Of a DNA stretch of 41,110 nucleotides, positions 560-25,696 are shown piece by piece. The position numbers were made by a program, and so were the translations under genes. Each line of letters begins with the position of its first letter. Position 1 is the first letter of the stretch. The DNA comes from Escherichia phage smaasur. Location: the sequence record MN850625.1. One strand, given 5' to 3'. The notes beneath the pieces were generated by a model. It saw only the letters and a program-made list of their open reading frames with translations. It ran no database searches and had not been told where the DNA came from.

Positions 560-3010
560 TTAAATTCTCCGAACCTTGTTATAGAACTTGACGTAATAAC
601 CTAAACCTTGAATGTTCAGGTCGCCTGCTGTAGTGGACGTGACCACCATGCTGCTGGACTCAACCTCCAGACCCATACGCACTTTGAGGTGCGCACGCTT
701 CGCCAGAGTTGCTGACTCCAGACCAAGCTCCTGACTCGTGTATCGAATCGGGCTGGAGATGATGTTCAGTGCAGAGTACGCCCCACGGTCACTGGCCGTG
801 ATAGTGAAGAGGCTCGTGTACCGCAACGTGAAGTTGTAGTGCATGATGACCATCTTGTTCACGTCCATGTACGAACCGTCGCCGTTGAAGATTCTCGGCG
901 GCGTAGGGCTGAACGTTGCAGTGAATCGCAGGCCCACATACAGCGACGTGCTGCCGTACGAGGGTTGCAGGTACACACGTCGGTTCGCAGTGTCGATGGA
1001 CTTGATACCAACCTCGGCACCGATGTACTGACCGGACGGCACAACCGTGGTCATAAAGTCCCAGTTGCCATCAGCCAGATACCGGGCTTGGATGATATCC
1101 CACAGCGCTTTCTGGATTCCGTCAGCCGCGAACTGGATGTACGAGTTGTCCGTCGCCGGGTTGGTCACAGTCATGAGCTGACTGTAATCCGTTGCCGGGA
1201 GGAAACGCGCTGGGTCAGTCGGGTCTGGAGAATCTCGCATGGACAGCGTAAGCATGTTCATGTGGCCGTTCTGCTCAACCAGCATCACCAGCACTTCACG
1301 GACGAACCATGCGGCGTGGATAGTGCCGTACAGCTCCCAGCGATGCCAAGACGACAACACCTTCTCATCGCCTGACCAGAGGTACTCGTTCACGTATAGC
1401 GTGGACTTCTCAGTGGTCGAGCCGAACACTACGATGTTGTTCGTGGTGCTGGCAGAGATGTAGCTGTTAGCCCCTTCCAGATAAGTCGGCAGGTGGTCGG
1501 TCACATCCTGACTCACGTACTGCAAATCCGTGTAACCGGACGGTAGCATCTCCTTGACGGAGAATGAGCTGTTCGAGCGCGGGTACGAATAATACAGGCT
1601 GCGGCCAGAGGTGGTCGGCGCTACGCCAGTGTCCATCTGGTACGTCGAGGTCAACACGGCGGTGGCGTTGTTCGGCGTGAGGATTTGGTTACGTCCGGGG
1701 ATGACTGCTTGGTGTTCCTCACTGGCCAGAATCAGGTCAGAGTTGAACGGCACCCCGTACCGGAACGAAGCCCCGGCGAAGCTGGATGCTGTGAACTCAA
1801 TGCGGTCATCGTCCAGCACCTGCGTAACAGTGGTGCGGAAGAAGTTGTTCCGGTCATCCTTGTTGCTGGAACCCATTGTGATGTACGGGCCACTGAATAC
1901 AATCAGGCGACCTTGGAACGAGGCCAAGCCAGTAATACCCACGCCATTAGCATCAGTGAATGCAGGGATGGAATTGGTCAGGTCATCGCCAGCCAAGCGG
2001 CCCGGCCAGCTACCCTGAGAGAAAGTGTGCTGGTTCGCGGTAGATGAGGTCTTGAACACCAACGGCATGGTGCTTGGGTTAATCCCGGTCGGGGAGCCGT
2101 AGGCACCTTTCTCAACCCAGCGTGAGTCATTGTAACTCCACTGGAAGTATTGAGCGAAGCTGGCGTCGCCCACAGTCATGATGAACCCACCCGCCGCCGC
2201 AGGCAATCTCGCCGGGAGCTTAGTGGTAAGGTCTACCGTGTGGGTGTTGGATGCAATGGCATAGCTTGAACCAGTCGAGGTAGATACGTTCATGTCGGCA
2301 GCAGCTTCGGTACACTGGATGTACAGGTACGCACCATCCTGTGCCACGACTTCTATACCCTCAGCCCCGCCTACGTGCGTGTCGAGCTGAGACTTGAGCT
2401 GACCGACGATGTACTCCGGCGTGGACTCTTGTGAAGGGTTGCCCGTTGTTGATGAGCTTTCCGGCGTAGTATACGTTGCACTCACTGCGCCCAACTTGGT
2501 CTGCACTCGCACGGTGAACTGCTTACCGTAAGCACCAGCGATAACAAAATAGTAACCCCGGCGACCCGGATTCATTCGCGTTTCGTTCTCGATTAGCACG
2601 GGCAGCTTGGAACAGTTGGCAACGTACATGGTGTTGCCTACGGTCGTGAATACAATGTCGTCGGGGTTATTTGCGATGAGATAATTCGACTGACCCATGA
2701 ACTGGACAGTCTCTGTCTCCACGATGGAGGTCACGTACCCAGTCTTCGTGTTAACGATGAACGTGGTAATCCCCCACCCTAAGTTAGTGGTGTAGAACCG
2801 GAGGTGGCCAAAATTTCCAAGGCTCCATACAGTCGCGTTGGTCGAACTTACGTCACGACTTAGGCGAGTGCCGGGGCGCTTGCGCAGGCCACGAACGGTA
2901 TCGGAGGTCATGTTGACCTGTTCCTCAACCTGCGATAGCTGTCGGTCAGTATAGACCTGCTGGCTTACGCCGCCGAGGATGGATTTATACGAGCCTTGGT
3001 AAACTGGCAT
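560..3010 (-). CDS. tail tubular protein B (T7 gp12-like)
   Basis: 816 aa. N-terminus SILGGVSQQ resembles recalled T7 gp12 NLKGGISQQ; internal matches VGDASFAQYF (T7 VGDASKSADQYY), YYSYPRSNSSFS (T7 YFASPRSSFTS), DHLPTYL (T7 SHVPNYI). Lies directly after tail tubular A with a TAATG overlap. Confidence 0.85.
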   Translation of the reverse strand: MPVYQGSYKSILGGVSQQVYTDRQLSQVEEQVNMTSDTVRGLRKRPGTRLSRDVSSTNATVWSLGNFGHLRFYTTNLGWGITTFIVNTKTGYVTSIVETETVQFMGQSNYLIANNPDDIVFTTVGNTMYVANCSKLPVLIENETRMNPGRRGYYFVIAGAYGKQFTVRVQTKLGAVSATYTTPESSSTTGNPSQESTPEYIVGQLKSQLDTHVGGAEGIEVVAQDGAYLYIQCTEAAADMNVSTSTGSSYAIASNTHTVDLTTKLPARLPAAAGGFIMTVGDASFAQYFQWSYNDSRWVEKGAYGSPTGINPSTMPLVFKTSSTANQHTFSQGSWPGRLAGDDLTNSIPAFTDANGVGITGLASFQGRLIVFSGPYITMGSSNKDDRNNFFRTTVTQVLDDDRIEFTASSFAGASFRYGVPFNSDLILASEEHQAVIPGRNQILTPNNATAVLTSTYQMDTGVAPTTSGRSLYYSYPRSNSSFSVKEMLPSGYTDLQYVSQDVTDHLPTYLEGANSYISASTTNNIVVFGSTTEKSTLYVNEYLWSGDEKVLSSWHRWELYGTIHAAWFVREVLVMLVEQNGHMNMLTLSMRDSPDPTDPARFLPATDYSQLMTVTNPATDNSYIQFAADGIQKALWDIIQARYLADGNWDFMTTVVPSGQYIGAEVGIKSIDTANRRVYLQPSYGSTSLYVGLRFTATFSPTPPRIFNGDGSYMDVNKMVIMHYNFTLRYTSLFTITASDRGAYSALNIISSPIRYTSQELGLESATLAKRAHLKVRMGLEVESSSMVVTSTTAGDLNIQGLGYYVKFYNKVRRI

Positions 3011-3618: not shown

Positions 3619-4611
3619 TTAGGCTTCGGTGGTAACGACACCCACCACGTCAGGACGCTTCTGACCCACAGTGTACATGTGGAAGCTATCCAGAACGTTG
3701 GTCATCTCTTTCTCGTCATCCCATACGCGGTTGAACAGCGGCTGGGCTTCGACGGTAACGAGAGCCAGAGACGGGTCGAACACAATCAGCTTACGCTTGA
3801 TTTCGTCGGCAGTGACGTTGAAGTCGGCACCGAGCAGGTGGTCGGTGATTGCAGCCTGCGGGAAAGCATTGCTCTCAATCAGGCGAATACCGTTGACGTA
3901 CGCAACACGGCGCATTGCGAAGTCGTTCACACCACGGCCACCAGTGAACTCAACGTTCATCAGTTTCTTGTGCTCCAGCAGGATGCTGAACCACGCCGGG
4001 TCAATCAGCGTAACCAGACGGCCAAGGTCAGCATCGCGGCGAATGAACGCTTCGATAACTTTCTTGTGGCCATGCACGATTGCGCTTGCGTCGTCTTCTT
4101 CGGAAGCGACGGTGCCAGTCAGCGTAATCTTCTCTTTGATACCAGCGTTGAATGCGCCAGCCAGAGAAGTCGGAGGCACGAAGTCAGCGCACTTCTGGAG
4201 CTGAATTACGTGCGCTTGGTCGAACGCCTTAGCCTGTGCAGTACCCATGTTACGGGTCAGCTCAGCACGGAAGTCCGGCGCAGTCCAGTCATCCTGATAG
4301 TCAATCGGGATACGGATGTAAGACACGGTATCCACAGTGACAATCAGCTTCTCGGAGCGCACTGGCTGGTTAACCAGAGACTCGCCGGACTTACGACCTT
4401 TCACGGTCACGCTGCCGAGGCGGTCGCCACGCCAAGTGTTGGACTGGTTAGCCACGGACTTGAAGTTGGTCAGACCGGAACGGAAGATGGAGTTGTAAAT
4501 AAACTGGGTCTGCACGTCACGGTCATACACCTCAAGGTGAATGTCGTTGTCAGAGTTCGCGCCACCCCAGTGTGGACGGAACTGGTTCGGGGTATAGGAG
4601 TTAGCTGCCAT
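3619..4611 (-). CDS. major capsid protein
   Basis: 330 aa, directly downstream of the scaffold gene and upstream of tail tubular A. Has an AAGGA ribosome-binding site and is followed by a hairpin. Size fits T7-like HK97-fold capsid proteins. Call is positional plus size. Confidence 0.8.
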   Translation of the reverse strand: MAANSYTPNQFRPHWGGANSDNDIHLEVYDRDVQTQFIYNSIFRSGLTNFKSVANQSNTWRGDRLGSVTVKGRKSGESLVNQPVRSEKLIVTVDTVSYIRIPIDYQDDWTAPDFRAELTRNMGTAQAKAFDQAHVIQLQKCADFVPPTSLAGAFNAGIKEKITLTGTVASEEDDASAIVHGHKKVIEAFIRRDADLGRLVTLIDPAWFSILLEHKKLMNVEFTGGRGVNDFAMRRVAYVNGIRLIESNAFPQAAITDHLLGADFNVTADEIKRKLIVFDPSLALVTVEAQPLFNRVWDDEKEMTNVLDSFHMYTVGQKRPDVVGVVTTEA

Positions 4612-19308: not shown

Positions 19309-19662
19309 TCACCACTTGCTCGGCACTGAGCCGGACAGGTAGTTAGTCGTAGGCTTACGCTCGATGTACTGATTGTACCGCGACATGGCATCACACGCCG
19401 CCTGATACAGACGCTCAGCTTCTGCATAGCTCCAGTCTTCGTCAGTGCTCGTCGGCTCCGGCACCTTGGCTACTTCATCCAGTAGCTCCCAGCACTCTGG
19501 CCGCGCAGTCCACGAACCATAGATACCGGAACCACGCGAGCCATCGTCGCGCCGGATGCTGATGCACTTGCTGTCGATATCCACCACAGTACCAGTCGCG
19601 CCGAAGTGTACGCTCTTGGTATCACAGTTACGAACGCGGTCGCCTACCTTTATCTTGCTCAT
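19309..19662 (-). CDS. hypothetical protein with N-terminal GDRVR motif (small paralogous family)
   Basis: Start placed at 19662 (MSKIKVGDRVR), where ATG overlaps the helicase stop as ATGA. Shares an N-terminal pattern with the genes at 21647..22099 and 24363..24626. Confidence 0.5.
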   Translation of the reverse strand: MSKIKVGDRVRNCDTKSVHFGATGTVVDIDSKCISIRRDDGSRGSGIYGSWTARPECWELLDEVAKVPEPTSTDEDWSYAEAERLYQAACDAMSRYNQYIERKPTTNYLSGSVPSKW

Positions 19663-20927
19663 CACATATCCTCGAATTGACATTTATCAGCATAGAAGTG
19701 AACCTGCGAACGGACGTTGGACGGACGCCCAGCTATCTGCCGCTTGTTCTTAGGAGTGCTCACGCCGCGCCGCGCTGCCAGCGCCGGGTCGTAAACGGAA
19801 CCCAGCATGACAATCACATCGGTCGCACCTTGGATACCAGTCTTGGAATCCTTGAGTGCGTCCAGCGCGGGGAACATATCGTCGGCACCGTCTGCGGATA
19901 CCTGAACCGTAGCCAGCGATACGAAGTCATGACGTACCGCCAGCTCACGTACCTCCTGCCAGAGCTGCTCGACTTGGCTGGCCTTGTTGCTGTTAGCGTC
20001 AGCCACAGACAACTTGAAGTTTGCCAGCATATCCCACACCACGATGCAGGGATTCATTGCTTCAATCACCTGCTCCGCTTTGGCCAACGTCGCGCCGTGC
20101 ATGTCCTTCACACGGATGATGTTGGCCGGGGCATTCAACGCCTTCGCGTACTTCTCATGCAGCTTCTTCCTGTCGGCACCCAGTGCTTTTAACTCCGGGA
20201 GCGTACAGCCGAGCGCCGCTTGGTAGATGCGCGGGATGATGTTGATGCCCTGCCCTTCGTTGTTGAACCATAAGATTGGTCGGCCCGGATACAGCTTCGC
20301 TGCTGTCGCCGCCATTCTCGTAAGGTTAAACGCGATGAAGGAAGTCTTGCCACTGTCGGGTCGAGCGCCGATTGCAACGGAGTCACCGGGGAGAAGTACC
20401 CTAACGCTATCTTGCAGACACATGAGACCGAACTTGAAACCTTGGTCATCATCTGTCCGATTGATAATATCAACCACATCATCATCAACGTAATCAGTGA
20501 CAGATGACTGCCCTCGACTGCGGCGTGCGCCTTCTGCAAGGCGGCCCAGCTCATAGATGAAATCAATCTCATCGCCATTGTCGTACCTCTGTGCAAGGAG
20601 GTTAACCTTGCCTGCTGTATCCAGCTCGACTAACTGGTCGATGATGCCTTCGGTCTGCTGCTTCGTCGGCTGGTATTCCTTGAGCTGCTGGCATAGCGAT
20701 TCGAACGCAGCCATCTGCTCCGGTGTACTCCCAGTCTTGAGCCGGACGTGTGTGCCTAGCGTTTCCATATCCACGTAGTCTGAATCCGGGAACGCCTCGA
20801 AGTATGAGCCATACGCACGCAGCATGTAGCCTGTGGTCTGACTCATAGTGTCCTCTGGAATGGCATGGCGCAGGGAGTTATACTTCCCGCGCTCACGCAT
20901 GACAGAGAGCAACAGTTTGTCTAACAC
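19662..20927 (-). CDS. DnaB-like (SF4) replicative DNA helicase
   Basis: 421 aa. Walker A GARPDSGKTS; Walker B-like IVVWDMLANF; RecA-like core. No zinc-finger or primase domain in this ORF. Confidence 0.8.
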   Translation of the reverse strand: MLDKLLLSVMRERGKYNSLRHAIPEDTMSQTTGYMLRAYGSYFEAFPDSDYVDMETLGTHVRLKTGSTPEQMAAFESLCQQLKEYQPTKQQTEGIIDQLVELDTAGKVNLLAQRYDNGDEIDFIYELGRLAEGARRSRGQSSVTDYVDDDVVDIINRTDDDQGFKFGLMCLQDSVRVLLPGDSVAIGARPDSGKTSFIAFNLTRMAATAAKLYPGRPILWFNNEGQGINIIPRIYQAALGCTLPELKALGADRKKLHEKYAKALNAPANIIRVKDMHGATLAKAEQVIEAMNPCIVVWDMLANFKLSVADANSNKASQVEQLWQEVRELAVRHDFVSLATVQVSADGADDMFPALDALKDSKTGIQGATDVIVMLGSVYDPALAARRGVSTPKNKRQIAGRPSNVRSQVHFYADKCQFEDM

Positions 20928-20936
20928 ATTACCCTC

Positions 20937-21650
20937 CTATATTGTTCGCACCCTGCCACACACTCTCAGCTCACGCCTGAGCCTGTCGCTCTGTCGGTGC
21001 TGCAATGATATCACTTCATAACGATTGGCCAGCGCAACGCTAACCAGAGCGCGTACGGTGGCATCGTCGGCATTGGCTACGAACGCTGCATTGCCATCCA
21101 CTCTGTCACCACGACGAACGTGGTCGAGATATGCTGATGCACTGTCGTAAATCCATATCCCTTTGAACTCATCGTCGTCATGATTACTTACTGTCACTGC
21201 CATTAGATGGTTGTGTGGCGAGCGCCACGGAATGAACTGCCGCCCGGTATAGTCCAGACCGCAGTAGCTTGCCGAGTTGTCCGGCAAGTAGATACGCCCG
21301 TACGTTGGGCTGGCAGACAACACACTCAGGTGTGGCAGCAGCTCGTTCTTCTCCAGCGCTGGCAATAACAGACCGGGCTGTTTCGCTATCACCTCAATGA
21401 GAGGCACAACGTCAGTCGGTATCTTCACTTGCTCTTTGGCTGGCGATACATACGGTGCATGGTTGAGGGGTTTAAAATCAGAGTGGCCACAGCGATGGCA
21501 CTTGCACCATACGCCCTCGCTGTTCCGGCCATACTCAAAGTTGGTCTTATTGAATGAGCGTGAGCAAGCGTGAAACGTCCGACGCTTTTGTCCTATCGGC
21601 AGACGCCTCGCCAGCTCCGGCCATTCATCATTGCCCACTGACTTTCTCAT
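20937..21650 (-). CDS. putative DNA primase (Cys-rich zinc-binding N-terminus)
   Basis: 237 aa directly upstream of the helicase. N-terminal HACSRS...CKCHRCGH cysteine/histidine cluster resembles primase zinc-binding domains. TOPRIM motifs not confidently identified. Confidence 0.4.
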   Translation of the reverse strand: MRKSVGNDEWPELARRLPIGQKRRTFHACSRSFNKTNFEYGRNSEGVWCKCHRCGHSDFKPLNHAPYVSPAKEQVKIPTDVVPLIEVIAKQPGLLLPALEKNELLPHLSVLSASPTYGRIYLPDNSASYCGLDYTGRQFIPWRSPHNHLMAVTVSNHDDDEFKGIWIYDSASAYLDHVRRGDRVDGNAAFVANADDATVRALVSVALANRYEVISLQHRQSDRLRRELRVCGRVRTI

Positions 21651-22099
21651 TCGTTATCCCACTCCGGCTCGTACTTAACTACACGTTTCATATTGACGCT
21701 ACCCACCACACGCAATACACGGGCAGTGCAGCCGTACGTTCTGGCCAATCTCTCAGCCTCGCGCCGCGCCGACTCTTCCGTAGTGTGCTCAACCTTCGGC
21801 GGCGTAGAGCCACCTACAACTACGCACATGAACCTGCCCCGGCTCGGCTCGGCCACAGGTTCAGGCTCGCCTATCAGCACGGTGTTGGAGGTTAGCCAGT
21901 CAGATTTGTAGCGCCCTATCTCCGGCTCCGTTCTGCGGTATCCGTTCTCTGACATGTACCAATGCACGAGGTATTTGATATCACCTTGCGGAGCATCTGG
22001 CCGTGCATAAATTACAATGCCTTCTGAGCCACGGCGCGTACCACAGTTGGAGCCAACCATTCGTATGCGGTCGCCCATTGCATAGGTCTTATCTACCAT
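21647..22099 (-). CDS. hypothetical protein with N-terminal GDRIR motif (small paralogous family)
   Basis: 150 aa; begins MGDRIRMVGSNCGTRRGSEGIVIYAR, paralogous pattern to the genes at 19309..19662 and 24363..24626. Confidence 0.5.
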   Translation of the reverse strand: MVDKTYAMGDRIRMVGSNCGTRRGSEGIVIYARPDAPQGDIKYLVHWYMSENGYRRTEPEIGRYKSDWLTSNTVLIGEPEPVAEPSRGRFMCVVVGGSTPPKVEHTTEESARREAERLARTYGCTARVLRVVGSVNMKRVVKYEPEWDNE

Positions 22100-22296
22100 T
22101 TAATCCACCCCCGGTTCTGGCCTACACTCAGGCTCAACTGCATCAGACCCCAGCCTACCAGCATACCGAGCAGCGTGCCCAGTGTTGAGGTGGCTGACTC
22201 ACCGACCGCAGGGATAAGCACCAGTGATGCAAGACCCACCCACAATGCTCCCCAAATAATTATCAGAAGCAGGAACAACAATATTACTTTGAGCAT
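22093..22296 (-). CDS. small membrane protein (two predicted transmembrane helices)
   Basis: Start placed at ATG 22296 (MLKVILLFLLLIIIWGALWVGLASLVLIPAVG...), preceded by GGAGGAGA. The ORF track's longer frame begins further upstream and includes the repeated ATGAAAGTAACTGT element at 22318-22332. Confidence 0.45.
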   Translation of the reverse strand: MLKVILLFLLLIIIWGALWVGLASLVLIPAVGESATSTLGTLLGMLVGWGLMQLSLSVGQNRGWIKW

Positions 22297-22317
22297 ATCT
22301 CCTCCGATGTTGTGCAA

Positions 22318-22332
22318 TACAGTTACTTTCAT
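22318..22332 (-). repeat. repeated element ATGAAAGTAACTGTa (copy 3, 14/15 match)
   Basis: On the minus strand, 22 nt upstream of the ATG at 22296 of the small membrane protein gene. Confidence 0.55.
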
Positions 22333-22364
22333 GGTGGCATCTCTCACGAAATGCCACGAGTAAG

Positions 22365-22607
22365 TCACTTAATTGTTTCGACCTTGGACAAATCATACTG
22401 CCCGTCAGCCAGCCGTTCCGGGTACAGGAACTGCGCCCGGCCATCGGTAACACCTTCGAAGTGCAGCATCTCAGGATTGTATTCGTCCCGACCTTTGAAG
22501 ATGAACTTGCCTGCATTCACTTCCAGTGCGACCGAACAGAACACACCGCCGCTCAGCTTGTACGCGGAACCGACTTCAAGTTTGCTTTCGTCTTTGATGA
22601 TAGTCAT
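22365..22607 (-). CDS. hypothetical small protein
   Basis: 80 aa ORF in the early gene block; no motif recognised. Confidence 0.45.
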   Translation of the reverse strand: MTIIKDESKLEVGSAYKLSGGVFCSVALEVNAGKFIFKGRDEYNPEMLHFEGVTDGRAQFLYPERLADGQYDLSKVETIK

Positions 22608-22760
22608 GCTGGTACTCCCATTCTGTTTACGATACGTTGCAGGTCATCTCGTTTAGCTTCGGCCTGCCACTTTGTGTCACGGACAGCAAACGGTCTGCCC
22701 GGTAGGTCAGCGTACACCACCCACCAGTGCTTACCAGTGGGTGATTTACGCACCACTAAT

Positions 22761-23276
22761 TCAGTGGAGCGTTGCACGTTTCACCTCGCTCGCCGCCGCC
22801 AGCAGCTCACCCAGTCCTTCCTTCAACTGTTGCAGCATGGCATCCAGTACCTCGCCAGCGAACAACACACTTGCGTGCGTCTCGCTCAGGTCGGCAGGCA
22901 CATTCTCACATGCCTGATACCAGTCGTGGTAGCTGGCGTGTACCGTCTCTTCACATGCGAAACGGATAACCAGCGCTGCCGCCATGCGGAGCTGCACCGC
23001 ACGGTCTGTTTCACCTGCTGCCTCCAGAGACTTGGTGCCGAGGCCAGCCAGCAGTGTGATGTTGCGTGCGATGATGGCACCAGTACGGGTCGGCGGGATG
23101 ATATCCACCATGTCCAGTCGGCCTGCCTTAATCGCTGCCACGTACGTCATCTTTGGCAGGAAGCCGCCACGAAATTCAATCACGTCGGATACTTCCGGGC
23201 GCTCATCAATCTCTGCGGCCATGCGTTTGGTTAATTCGAACTGCTGTTTGTCGAACGTTGCGAAGTTAATAGCCAT
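22761..23276 (-). CDS. hypothetical protein
   Basis: 171 aa ORF, tightly packed with neighbours. Confidence 0.5.
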   Translation of the reverse strand: MAINFATFDKQQFELTKRMAAEIDERPEVSDVIEFRGGFLPKMTYVAAIKAGRLDMVDIIPPTRTGAIIARNITLLAGLGTKSLEAAGETDRAVQLRMAAALVIRFACEETVHASYHDWYQACENVPADLSETHASVLFAGEVLDAMLQQLKEGLGELLAAASEVKRATLH

Positions 23277-23279
23277 GAT

Positions 23280-23576
23280 TTATTTACCTTTTACTTTACG
23301 GATAGAGAACTTGTCATTCTCGTAGGCGTAGAACTCATACTCAGGAGCATGGCCTGCCTTCGTAACGACCAGTCGTTTGCCATCATACTCGACGGCACCG
23401 ATGCGTTGCACGTAGCCAGAGTACGCTACGATGTAGTCACCAATTTCCAGTTGCTCACTGGTCTTGGTCACGTACTCGAACGGCTCAGGGTCTGCAACTT
23501 CCACGCGCTGCGGTGGTGGGCCGAAGCTATCCTTCACCCACTGAACCAACGCATCCCACTTAGCACTTCTGCTCAT
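23280..23576 (-). CDS. hypothetical protein (99 aa from MSRSAKW)
   Basis: Start moved to ATG 23576, which has a GGAGGAAAGAGAGG ribosome-binding site and lies 1 nt after the upstream TAG. Confidence 0.45.
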   Translation of the reverse strand: MSRSAKWDALVQWVKDSFGPPPQRVEVADPEPFEYVTKTSEQLEIGDYIVAYSGYVQRIGAVEYDGKRLVVTKAGHAPEYEFYAYENDKFSIRKVKGK

Positions 23577-23577
23577 A

Positions 23578-23862
23578 CTATACCTCTCTTTCCTCCAGCC
23601 ATTGTTGCGCGGCTGCATACGCATCTTCATAACTTACGAAGCCGTCGAACTCATCGCCGTTCGGTGCGAGGAAACACCAGTCGAGATGTACATGTGGGTT
23701 GCCCTTCGAGAAGATTACGCAGGGGAATACACCGCCGACCGAGTGACCGCGCAGGCCGCCGTTACCAGCGCAGTGACCAAGCGTTGCGGCTACACCACGC
23801 AGATGCTCAGCCTCCCGGATTGCGCTGGCTTGTTCGATAATTGTTTCTGATGCCAGTACCAT
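23578..23862 (-). CDS. hypothetical small protein
   Basis: 94 aa ORF in the early block. Confidence 0.4.
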   Translation of the reverse strand: MVLASETIIEQASAIREAEHLRGVAATLGHCAGNGGLRGHSVGGVFPCVIFSKGNPHVHLDWCFLAPNGDEFDGFVSYEDAYAAAQQWLEEREV

Positions 23863-24024
23863 ATCGCTACCCTCTCATTAAATAATACTCGTGGTGCATG
23901 TAGTGACCGCCGAGATACACCGCCCGGCTGAACAGGTTGGGGTTGCTCGCCCCACCCAGCGCACAGTAACCAGCGTACGTTATCTGATTAGCGTGCGCAT
24001 TGTACGTGCTGCCGCCCATGCTCA

Positions 24025-24360
24025 TCACTCCCGCTCAGCTATGCCGAACAGATACATGTCGCCAGAGTACACTGTCGTCATGGTCGCCAGCCATTGCTGC
24101 ATGATGCGAACGCTCGCATTGAAGTGCTGGTCATTCAGCAGGTCAATGATAAACGGACGGCCACCAGCGTACGCCTTGACTCGCTCTATTATCTGCTGGT
24201 CAGTGGCATCCTCAGCAGTGAGGTGATGCCCCATGATTTCAAACTGGTTGAATACAACCAGACCTTCGCGGCCATCAGGCAGGAGGTAGACGAAAGCCAC
24301 AACGTGCTCGCCATCCTCAAAGTCCTTGCCGCGTTTGATGAGTACCTTGTGAATGGCCAT
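24025..24360 (-). CDS. hypothetical small protein
   Basis: 111 aa ORF; start abuts the upstream stop at 24363. Confidence 0.45.
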   Translation of the reverse strand: MAIHKVLIKRGKDFEDGEHVVAFVYLLPDGREGLVVFNQFEIMGHHLTAEDATDQQIIERVKAYAGGRPFIIDLLNDQHFNASVRIMQQWLATMTTVYSGDMYLFGIAERE

Positions 24361-24362
24361 AC

Positions 24363-24626
24363 TTACTCCACTTCGAAGTCGCCGTCGTCGTCGTAGCCGT
24401 ACCCCAGTACGCCAGCCAGTTCGCCGTTAACACCTTCGGCCTGCGCCTCATCAAACAGGACGATGAAGTCATCATCATCGGACGCCAGACCACGGTACAC
24501 ATCTGCATCCGGGTGCGCATCGAATACAGGCAGGCTCTTACCAGTATCGCCACGGTACACGACCACACCTACAGCGTTGCCGAACCATCTTGACTTAACG
24601 CGCTGACCTAATTCTAATTTGCTCAT
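24363..24626 (-). CDS. small acidic protein (N-terminal GQRVK motif, Asp-rich C-terminus)
   Basis: Start placed at ATG 24626 (MSKLELGQRVK), which has a GAGGA ribosome-binding site. C-terminus DDDDFIVLFDEAQAEGVNGELAGVLGYGYDDDGDFEVE is strongly acidic. Confidence 0.5.
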   Translation of the reverse strand: MSKLELGQRVKSRWFGNAVGVVVYRGDTGKSLPVFDAHPDADVYRGLASDDDDFIVLFDEAQAEGVNGELAGVLGYGYDDDGDFEVE

Positions 24627-24663
24627 GTTAATATCCTCAAATGGATGGGGCAGGATTGCCATA

Positions 24664-24687
24664 AAGCCAGCGCCGGAACACTGGCTT
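24664..24687 (-). promoter_or_regulatory. intergenic RNA hairpin (7-bp stem AAGCCAG/CTGGCTT, 10-nt loop)
   Basis: Perfect inverted repeat read directly from sequence, between the stop at 24703 and the start at 24626. Confidence 0.4.
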
Positions 24688-24702: not shown

Positions 24703-24978
24703 TTACGCAGCTTCGTCTACGACGCCGATGTGCTCCAGCTCTACGCCTTCACCCCACACACGCTTGGCTGCATCTTGCAGCTCGTGAATCTGGATACCAG
24801 ACAGGATGAAGATGAGTTCAGGCGGCACGCCTTCACGGTTCAGTTCGGCCAGCACGCCTTCGCCATCAGTCGGCTCGTTGTCGCGGCGAGTGTGAGCCAG
24901 ATAGTGGCCGTTCTTTTCCAGTGCGTAGGCCACTACGTTGTTTGATTCGGTGCCACGTACGATGTAACCATTTGCCAT
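24703..24978 (-). CDS. small acidic early protein
   Basis: 91 aa with AAGGAGA ribosome-binding site; net acidic (many D/E). Confidence 0.5.
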   Translation of the reverse strand: MANGYIVRGTESNNVVAYALEKNGHYLAHTRRDNEPTDGEGVLAELNREGVPPELIFILSGIQIHELQDAAKRVWGEGVELEHIGVVDEAA

Positions 24979-25048: not shown

Positions 25049-25318
25049 TCACTCAGCGAACGGGATGGTGCCGATGAACTCCAGCGTCACCTCGCCATGC
25101 TGTTCCTCGACGTACTCGATGTTGGCAGCTTCGGCGCGGCCAGACACGTCAAACAGCAGTTCGCTATAGGCCACCTGACCAATCAGGAAGTCCAGAATCT
25201 CCTGCGTACTTGGGTCGCCTTCTTTGACGTACGCCAGCAGGGTCAGCCCTTTCTGATTGTCCAGCAGGTAGAATACCACCTTGCCAGATGCGTCTTTGAC
25301 CAAACTCACACGAATCAT
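25049..25318 (-). CDS. hypothetical small early protein (89 aa from MIRVSL)
   Basis: Start moved to ATG 25318, which follows AAAGGAGG; the ORF track's upstream ATG at 25345 lacks a ribosome-binding site. Confidence 0.5.
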   Translation of the reverse strand: MIRVSLVKDASGKVVFYLLDNQKGLTLLAYVKEGDPSTQEILDFLIGQVAYSELLFDVSGRAEAANIEYVEEQHGEVTLEFIGTIPFAE

Positions 25319-25347
25319 GCAGCCTCCTTTGGCTTGGGATAACAATT

Positions 25348-25384: not shown

Positions 25385-25696
25385 TTACTCGTCGTCAGAT
25401 TCGACGCTGTAAACCTCGTCGATATCTGCGCCTTCTACGTCGGCAGCGTCAATGAAAGGCACGCCGTTCAGCATGGCGATGAGCGCCAGCGGCATGTCAG
25501 CATCCAGACCCTGTTCACGGAAGTGCGCTTCGATTTCTTCCTTCGAGTCGCCGTCTTTGTTGATGCCTGCAATCAGGTAGCCCTGACCGTCAGTGATTGC
25601 GACGTACTGCTTGCTCTGTACGTCTTCCAGTTTGACGCCTTCACCGAAAGCAGAGGCAGGCAGGTTGTTCAGCAGGACTACAGTTAATTTGGACAT
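25385..25696 (-). CDS. small acidic early protein
   Basis: 103 aa with GGAGACTTAAC-ATG initiation region; C-terminus DAADVEGADIDEVYSVESDDE. Confidence 0.5.
   Translation of the reverse strand: MSKLTVVLLNNLPASAFGEGVKLEDVQSKQYVAITDGQGYLIAGINKDGDSKEEIEAHFREQGLDADMPLALIAMLNGVPFIDAADVEGADIDEVYSVESDDE

Follow-up and report, generated by a model that had tools for sequence, protein, structure and literature searches.

A probable shared fold in three phage proteins

Three small proteins encoded by one T7-related phage, here termed A, B and C, share an SH3-like fold (a probable one in B) and a KOW-like N-terminal motif, but their intragenomic paralogy is not demonstrable; the finding is real but ordinary. 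We consider it probable that they represent three distinct SH3-like-barrel families, ancient homologues at most, with A and B serving as replication accessories and C as a binder of a host protein.

The window, that is, the whole 41,110-nucleotide stretch of DNA analysed (Escherichia phage smaasur, record MN850625.1), belongs to a Bonnellvirus (Autographiviridae), a T7 relative infecting E. coli with ~96% identity to Escherichia phage J8-65. All three ORFs lie on the minus strand behind a good ribosome-binding site: gene A (19309..19662) encodes 117 aa with the N-terminus MSKIKVGDRVRNCDTKSVHFGATGTVVDI, gene B (21647..22099) encodes 150 aa starting with MVDKTYAMGDRIRMVGSNCGTRRGSEGIVIYAR and gene C (24363..24626) encodes 87 aa (pI 4.1) starting with MSKLELGQRVKSRWFGNAVGVVVYRG. 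The original prediction, which had placed the three ORFs and quoted their N-terminal peptides correctly, interpreted them as a paralogous family of duplicated β-barrels. Gene A is translationally coupled to a DnaB-like helicase gene (19662..20927, minus strand), its ATG overlapping the helicase stop codon in the sequence TGATG, and gene B is coupled to the DNA primase gene (20937..21650, minus strand), the ATG of which is overlapped by the gene B stop codon (ATGA). A literature search on Bonnellvirus retrieved no functional work on the A, B or C genes.

Architecture of the three proteins

The gene A product is 100% identical to J8-65 gp15 and is organized as an SH3-like barrel followed by a flexible linker, a conserved helix and a tail. 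In the AlphaFold model (pLDDT 76.7; barrel residues 9–60), five strands (residues 9–12, 23–29, 34–38, 51–53 and 58–60) form the barrel. The assignment of residues 1–62 (19477..19662, minus strand) to an SH3/KOW-like barrel draws on this model, Foldseek searches of the PDB and BFVD, a sub-cutoff Pfam SH3_12 match and PsaE and L24 sequence matches. The motif VGDRVRNCDTKSVHFGATGTVV, delineated by profile comparison, covers residues 6–28 (19579..19647, minus strand) and corresponds to strand 1, the loop and strand 2. The Foldseek neighbours of the model comprise Spt5/NusG KOW domains, ribosomal eL21-type proteins, PsaE, NdhS and the Pif1 SH3 domain, and BFVD yielded 24 matches at E ≤ 1e-3 and 1464 at E ≤ 10, several of them phage proteins named 'SH3-like' or 'KOW domain'.

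The best-conserved part of the A family is its C-terminal region (residues 78–117; 19312..19431, minus strand), which consists of a helix (residues 79–102) and the tail and follows the pattern DWSYAEAERLY...YNQY.ERKPT.NYL...PSKW (phrog_19629). It is common to Cronobacter phage Peggy gp150, Pectobacterium phage PPWS1 gp12 and LIMEzero gp19. We discarded a match of the helix to the Pseudomonas protein SrfA (7xnj, E = 0.02) as reflecting helical composition. Gene A is present in all Bonnellvirus genomes examined, the Peggy and PPWS1 orthologues adjoin the helicase gene, and the family keeps its position beside the helicase, as well as its architecture, across genera.

The gene C product (phrog_23012) is modeled by AlphaFold as one acidic SH3/Tudor-like barrel with strands at residues 9–12, 18–25, 53–58, 74–78 and 84–86 and a helical insert at residues 33–47; its motif LGQRVKSRWFGNAVGVVV (profile comparison) spans residues 6–24 (24555..24611, minus strand). 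The acidic stretch, which had been taken for a C-terminal fusion, maps in this model to strands 3–5 and the loops of the same barrel. The predicted fusion to different C-terminal regions holds for A and B, which carry different modules, but not for the single-domain C. Among the genomes examined, C was restricted to Bonnellvirus genomes of the Lidtsur type and to phi92-like myoviruses, and it is an accessory early gene located in the variable early region.

The predicted models of A and C thus both show SH3-like barrels of five antiparallel strands, their nearest solved structures being SH3-like barrels as well. The structural neighbours common to A and C are NusG (1m1g), Spt5 (4ytl and 4zn3), NdhS (6a7k), PsaE and Pif1.

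Gene B is the Lidtsur-type allele of J8-65 gp12 and encodes an N-terminal barrel-like domain followed by a C-terminal α/β domain. Residues 1–78 (21866..22099, minus strand) probably adopt an SH3/KOW-like barrel, as suggested by profile alignment with A (hhalign 91–94%) and by the best PDB sequence matches, namely Rv2302, Spt5 KOW and L24 (E = 0.05–0.12). The motif MGDRIRMVGSNCGTRRGSEGIVI, again located by profile comparison, covers residues 8–30 (22010..22078, minus strand). Relative to J8-65, the N-terminal domain is an allelic hot-spot, with a divergent, replaced allele inside an otherwise 96%-identical backbone. The assignment of all three N-terminal segments to small SH3/KOW-like β-barrels, as originally predicted, is thus supported by AlphaFold for A and C and suggested by profiles for B.

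The B C-terminal domain (residues 85–150; 21650..21847, minus strand; phrog_17352) carries the invariant pattern P..H.....A..EA.RL and ends with ...EPEWDNE in the window. Gene B was found in Bonnellvirus and also in Wanjuvirus, where it follows the helicase gene. In other phages, the C-terminal domain is found in replication modules, either alone or behind different N-termini; its relatives neighbour a gene for a T7-type SSB, DnaB or SNF2 or are fused to DUF5906, and B relatives harbor 0, 1 or 2 SH3-like repeats with KAGDKV or KVGDRVRR motifs. A relationship of this domain to DUF2188 or T4 Y13H was rejected, as the matches reached only E = 0.02–0.16 and concerned one or two members.

Similarity is confined to the first β-hairpin

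Pairwise comparison of A, B and C reveals no convincing or significant similarity. The Smith–Waterman z-scores are 1.6 for A–B, 3.5 for A–C and 0.1 for B–C, the corresponding scores being reached by 73, 9 and 421 of 1000 shuffles, and all phmmer cross-matches among the three proteins in a 1451-ORF database have E > 0.2. The G[DQ]R[VI][RK] core occurs three times in the 54 genes (13,359 aa), always inside the first 20 residues, and three occurrences were reached in 0 of 2000 shuffles (mean 0.08), a result that overstates significance because the pattern was defined post hoc.

In profile–profile comparison with hhalign, A–C scored 87.6% (P = 3.5e-6, 24 columns), and a deeper alignment of the B N-terminal domain raised A–B from 52% to 93.9% (P = 1.5e-7, 29 columns) and B–C from 3.8% to 52%, which is still weak. 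These alignments cover only the first 24–29 residues, corresponding to strand 1, the loop and strand 2, and nothing past the first β-hairpin. As a control, we ran an all-against-all hhalign comparison of 28 small-protein families of the window: among the 377 pairs, the median was 0.2% and the 95th percentile 1.4%, and the top two pairs were A–B (91%) and A–C (85%). After removal of the first four residues (MSKI or MSKL; six residues for B), A–C dropped to 5% (P = 0.007) and A–B remained at 74%. Judging from these alignments, the A–B similarity appears to exceed chance, whereas the A–C similarity seems largely due to the common MSK start. The observation of a shared N-terminal motif is thus partly confirmed, and the similarity does not extend beyond one hairpin.

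At the DNA level, the region around the ATG (−20 to +30, 49 nt) gives z = 8.3 for A–C, a similarity that the Shine–Dalgarno sequence, the MSK start and G.RV would explain, with z = 1.4 for A–B and −0.1 for B–C. MSK appears to be a frequent start in this genome. The PPWS1 gp08 protein likewise begins with MSKFKVGDVV. Two further ORFs considered as additional members, with 'LEIGDY' (23280..23630) and 'LEVGSAY' (22365..22607), were set aside, their hhalign values to A, B and C being at most ~2%.

Distinct families or ancient paralogues

The ranking of A–B and A–C as the best of 377 pairs and the 74% retained by A–B upon trimming make a common origin of A and B, at least, quite possible, and the A–C DNA similarity around the ATG likewise speaks against our reading. 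A rival to this reading is true paralogy: an ancestor among the Autographiviridae would have duplicated an SH3-like module in its genome and joined the copies to different C-termini, producing A and B, and possibly C, with the first hairpin as the sole part still recognisable. We regard this as rather unlikely. It would account for the A–B profile score (91–94%, P about 1e-7 to 1e-6), which largely withstands trimming, for the N-domain HMMs being reciprocal best cross-family matches among 2301 six-frame ORFs and for the exchange of places between A-like and B-like genes around primase and helicase in different genera, the Wanjuvirus B-like gene sitting at the position of A; moreover, the occurrence of two tandem SH3-like repeats in B-type proteins shows that the module does duplicate. 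However, the similarity ends within 29 columns, the pairwise scores are not significant and the motif is of a kind common to KOW/SH3 barrels in general. Other phage families also outscore B and C as relatives of the A N-terminal domain (phrog_6703, 20.4 bits; phrog_2251, 19.9 bits; versus 5.8 and 10.6 bits for the B and C N-domain profiles, respectively). The link to C is lost without the MSK start, and the phi92-type C homologues, which lack this start, already carry 'ELGxRV' (ELGMRV). This string was therefore not copied from A, and we rejected recent copying of the A 5′ end into C.

The claim of a duplicated, paralogous family is not supported: besides non-significant pairwise scores and at most ~28 similar residues, the three proteins belong to different PHROGs (19629, 6703 and 2251 for A; 28324 for B; 23012 for C), no Pfam family common to A, B and C was found, and their phyletic distributions differ.

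We think it very doubtful that the resemblance is a short, structurally meaningless motif driven by chance or composition together with a common initiation context (GAGGA Shine–Dalgarno sequence, MSK start). The low pairwise z-scores, the collapse of A–C once the MSKx start is removed, the MSKL start also seen in a further gene (25385..25696) and the post hoc regular expression would all fit such an explanation. It is nonetheless largely refuted by the A and C models, which independently yield SH3-like barrels with the motif as strands 1 and 2; in addition, trimmed A–B lies far above the genome's own background, and the profiles of A, B and C each draw SH3/KOW proteins from the PDB.

Under the interpretation of three distinct families, the 'hxhG(D/Q)R(V/I)x...G..G.V(V/I)' string would be the usual signature of strand 1, the turn and strand 2 in the SH3-like fold. 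A, B and C would be at most ancient homologues inside this superfold, which is plausible for A and B, and would not stem from a recent duplication in this genome.

Putative roles

Both A and B are conserved, and each is translationally coupled to a replication gene, A to the helicase and B to the primase; this makes them reasonable candidates for replisome accessory factors in a phage group that has neither an annotated SSB nor an annotated helicase loader. Gene context suggests that both may assist the replication module as accessory proteins, A being co-translated with the helicase and B with the primase. Their barrels could serve as generic nucleic-acid- or protein-binding modules, and specific docking might be provided by the C-terminal modules, i.e. 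the helix and RKPT..Y..PSKW tail of A and the α/β domain of B ending in W-D-x-E. C, a stand-alone acidic barrel that unrelated E. coli phages have apparently exchanged, is most likely a binder of a host protein.

The idea of a diversifying host-interaction family, with each barrel aimed at a different host factor during takeover, is highly improbable: C is acidic, lies in the variable early region and is common to unrelated E. coli phages, and the B N-terminal domain is a replaced allele, but A is identical to its J8-65 counterpart and retains its place and architecture beside the helicase across genera, B overlaps the primase gene and has relatives in replication modules, and there is no evidence that the three descend from one ancestor. 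Instead, A and B belong to the conserved genes of the replication module and have orthologues in other genera, which leaves C as the sole accessory early gene.

A more speculative and, in our view, improbable proposal is that A and B are unrecognised SH3-barrel replisome adaptors of phiKMV-like and other Autographiviridae, the B C-terminal domain (phrog_17352) being a new fork hub module with relatives acting as SSB-tail mimics. If so, A would be a helicase-coupled adaptor and B a primase-coupled adaptor. As stand-alone relatives of the B C-terminal domain carry DDIPF tails like that of E. coli SSB, they may act as mimics of the host SSB tail, or as its competitors, in recruiting or blocking SSB-interacting enzymes. 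B itself is unlikely to be the missing SSB, since a T7-type SSB is encoded immediately downstream in phages with B-like genes; B also gives no OB-fold signal.

The analysis provides a fold, a probable one in the case of B, for three 'hypothetical' proteins of one phage genus and tells fold-level resemblance apart from true paralogy. Among phage ORFans, small barrels of the SH3-like type are extremely frequent, and the observation by itself therefore alters little.

Comparison with known systems

Like A, C and, as predicted, B, the NusG/Spt5 KOW domains and ribosomal protein L24 are small five-stranded barrels with a G-D-x-V...G..G.V hairpin at the same place, and they provide weak, non-significant sequence matches for A and B. 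The phage proteins differ from them by a longer strand 1–2 loop and by the absence of an NGN or ribosomal context, and Pfam KOW (PF00467) is not matched at E ≤ 10 by A, B, C or their family members. A matches SH3_12 (PF18129, Xrn1 SH3-like) with 22.7 bits (E = 9.5e-5), which does not reach the curated cutoff (26.2 bits); sub-threshold SH3_12 matches occur in 15 of 22 A-family members (best E = 6.2e-5). Four of the 22 match Phage_ProQ_C_like (Phage ProQ C-terminal-like domain), also below the curated cutoff, and PsaE HMM matches to A reach E ~0.1. B and C gave no matches to SH3_12, PsaE/NdhS or the Phage ProQ C-terminal-like domain. The small phage proteins annotated as SH3-like or KOW in BFVD, partly from other Autographiviridae (PPWS2, K5, Aci07 and pf16), agree with A in fold and size but belong to different sequence families.

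Tudor-like barrels, such as the C-terminal Tudor domain of PcrA/UvrD, CarD, SMN Tudor and PWWP, dock on other proteins. C has no sequence relationship to them and differs by its helical insert at residues 33–47, its extended distal loop and its strongly acidic surface (pI 4.1).

The C-terminal acidic tail of E. coli SSB ends with ...DDDIPF. Stand-alone relatives of the B C-terminal domain (P0044, P0048, P0053 and P0051) end with ...EDDIPF, ...DDDLPF, ...EDDMPF or ...GELPF, whereas B of the window (...EPEWDNE) has neither the [ILM]PF motif nor an OB fold, and in some phages a T7-type SSB is encoded beside the B-like gene.

Organization of the A, B and C genes

The genome belongs to the genus Bonnellvirus (Autographiviridae) and its backbone is ~96% identical to that of Escherichia phage J8-65. 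All genes of the region considered here lie on the minus strand, including those of three small proteins, A (19309..19662, 117 aa), B (21647..22099, 150 aa) and C (24363..24626, 87 aa), for which the previously quoted peptides are accurate and each of which is preceded by a Shine-Dalgarno sequence at proper spacing. A is matched with 100% identity by J8-65 gp15, and B is a Lidtsur-type allele of J8-65 gp12 (86% identity to Lidtsur gp20 versus 49% to J8-65 gp12). The C gene is found among sequenced phages only in Lidtsur and is missing from J8-65 (see below for the distribution of its protein family). A and B are both replication-module genes and show translational coupling, A to the helicase and B to the primase: the helicase stop overlaps the A start (TGATG) and the B stop overlaps the primase start (ATGA).

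SH3/KOW-like barrels modeled in A and C and probable in B

The AlphaFold model of A (22-sequence alignment, pLDDT 76.7) comprises a five-stranded barrel (residues 9-60), a disordered linker (65-72), a helix (79-102) and a tail. Foldseek comparison with the PDB retrieved Spt5/NusG KOW domains, eL21-type ribosomal proteins, PsaE, NdhS/Ssl0352 and the Pif1 SH3 domain, and comparison with BFVD returned 1464 matches at E <= 10, with some phage proteins named 'SH3-like' or 'KOW domain'. Sub-threshold matches to Pfam SH3_12 were detected in 15 of the 22 A-family members, and 4 of the 22 match Phage_ProQ_C_like. C is modeled as a single domain (pLDDT 88.9, pTM 0.82) with strands at residues 9-12, 18-25, 53-58, 74-78 and 84-86 and a helical insert at 33-47; the acidic 'C-terminal region' proposed to be fused to it therefore belongs to the barrel, with no fused tail. 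We infer an N-terminal barrel for B from its hhalign link to A, from PDB sequence matches (Rv2302, Spt5 KOW2-3 and L24, E = 0.05-0.12) and from the strand-like pattern conserved in a deeper alignment of this domain. The predicted SH3/KOW-like fold thus holds, through models of A and C and profile inference for B.

The shared sequence is limited to one hairpin

Smith-Waterman comparisons are weak for all pairs (z = 1.6 for A-B, 3.5 for A-C and 0.1 for B-C, 1000 shuffles). The motif G[DQ]R[VI][RK] occurs three times in the ~13.4 kaa proteome versus 0.08 expected, for a pattern derived from the same data. Using family alignments of 22 (A), 12 (B) and 7 (C) sequences, hhalign yielded 87.6% over 24 columns for A-C, 52% over 28 columns for A-B and 3.8% for B-C. 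An exhaustive HMMER search recovered only 24 representatives of B relatives; with the deeper B alignment, A-B reached up to 93.9% (P = 1.5e-7) and B-C up to 52%. In an all-against-all hhalign control of 28 small-protein families of the window (377 pairs; median 0.2%, 95th percentile 1.4%), A-B (91%) and A-C (85%) ranked as the top two pairs. The sole other signal above background came from three adjacent small acidic early genes (24703..24978, 25049..25345 and 25385..25696, minus strand), the first of which aligns with the second at 80.9% over 76 columns and with the third at 27% over 71 columns, with pairwise z-scores of 3.3 and 3.6; they seem to be genuine paralogues in tandem, alike over their full length. 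Searching 2301 six-frame ORFs with the N-domain HMMs returned the other two families as top non-self matches (E about 0.01-0.07), with A as the hub.

The motif and fold common to A, B and C are real, and A-B and A-C are the best profile pairs, but the statistics are weak and the aligned stretch is a single hairpin, confined in all pairs to the first 24-29 residues at most. Trimming the 'MSKx' start lowered A-C to 5% (P = 0.007) and left A-B at 74%. An MSKL start is also present in the 25385..25696 gene, and codons two and three are commonly A-rich as a feature linked to expression. At the DNA level, A and C have 49 nt in common from -20 to +30 around the ATG (19640..19685 and 24605..24650, minus strand; ~71% identity, z = 8.3 versus shuffles), and the 20 nt upstream of A find their best match among 48 gene starts in those of C (13/20; runner-up 11). 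This likeness probably reflects the GAGGA Shine-Dalgarno site, the MSK start and G.RV, which do not fully explain it. Since phi92-type C homologues already begin MIKELGMRV, the first strand of C is ancestral to its own family.

A probable recurrent module rather than a demonstrated duplication

The likeness is most simply explained by a fold module that is ubiquitous and whose KOW-like hairpin is generic. A, B and C add new examples to a type of protein that is very common in phages. For A and B, ancient common descent is possible, albeit not demonstrable. The originally predicted duplication giving rise to all three is not demonstrated, as they match different PHROGs (19629, with the C-terminal part, 6703 and 2251 for A; 28324 for B; 23012 for C), have no Pfam family in common and are not mutual nearest relatives, the A N-domain scoring ~20 bits with phrog_6703 and phrog_2251 but only 5.8 bits with the N-domain HMM of B and 10.6 bits with that of C.

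A is found in every Bonnellvirus genome examined, and its orthologues in Cronobacter phage Peggy and Pectobacterium phage PPWS1 adjoin the helicase and have the same barrel-plus-helix architecture. B lies before the primase in Bonnellvirus and after the helicase in Wanjuvirus (Arno160, PP2), and phrog_23012 (C) is shared by a few Bonnellvirus genomes and phi92-like myoviruses of the genus Justusliebigvirus. PPWS1 gp08 (1512..1976 of its locus, L026) starts with the same motif (MSKFKVGDVV...), and B-type proteins exist in which two SH3-like repeats stand in tandem (KAGDKV..., KVGDRVRR...). SH3-like modules apparently recur as building blocks in replication regions of related Autographiviridae. 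The motif KVGD.V...G..G.V was also observed in relatives' loci, at 4608..5174 of L019 and in 273-aa ORFs of L018, L019 and L022.

The B barrel and C are exchangeable

Two segments, ~21850-22094 (B N-domain) and 23875-24623 (with C), have no blastn match to J8-65 and are surrounded by sequence 93-96% identical to it. Both are Lidtsur-like, corresponding to the B N-terminal barrel and to a block with ORFs 23867..24028 and 24025..24360 and C. Thus, the B barrel and C are exchangeable and A is not, a nucleotide-level pattern that points to mosaic exchange in the early/replication region. C, which is acidic (pI 4.1) and common to unrelated E. coli phages, is most plausibly a putative host-protein binder; a diversifying host-interaction family, as initially suggested, fits A and B poorly.

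The spacer upstream of C carries a GC-rich hairpin followed by Ts (AAGCCAGTGTTCCGGCGCTGGCTTT, about 24640..24665, minus strand), and inverted repeats also occur in the ~70-nt spacers of other early genes, such as the one before 25049..25345. These early-gene elements may act as terminators or as sites of RNase III-type processing.

A and B in the replication module

Conservation in A is highest in the C-terminal helix and tail, with invariant D76, W77, S78, Y79, E81, A82, R84 and L85, followed by Y96, N97, Y99, R102, K103, P104, T105, Y108, P114 and K116, which suggests docking on a conserved partner. Among its 49 features, the J8-65 record has no annotated single-stranded DNA-binding protein or helicase loader, and several conserved 100-180 aa proteins of its replication region are still 'hypothetical'.

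The C-terminal domain of B (residues 85-150; 21650..21847, minus strand; phrog_17352) is a separate module with the invariant pattern P..H.....A..EA.RL, for which a search for known families found no match. Its relatives (P0044, P0045, P0048, P0051 and P0053; loci L018-L024, L027 and L029) stand alone or carry other N-termini in replication/recombination contexts: upstream of a T7-type SSB (SBB_T7, E = 8e-22), near DnaB or SNF2 helicases, fused to a DUF5906 NTPase or after an AAA_24 ATPase. Several stand-alone relatives end in ...EDDIPF, ...DDDLPF, ...EDDMPF or ...GELPF, acidic tails resembling that of E. coli SSB.
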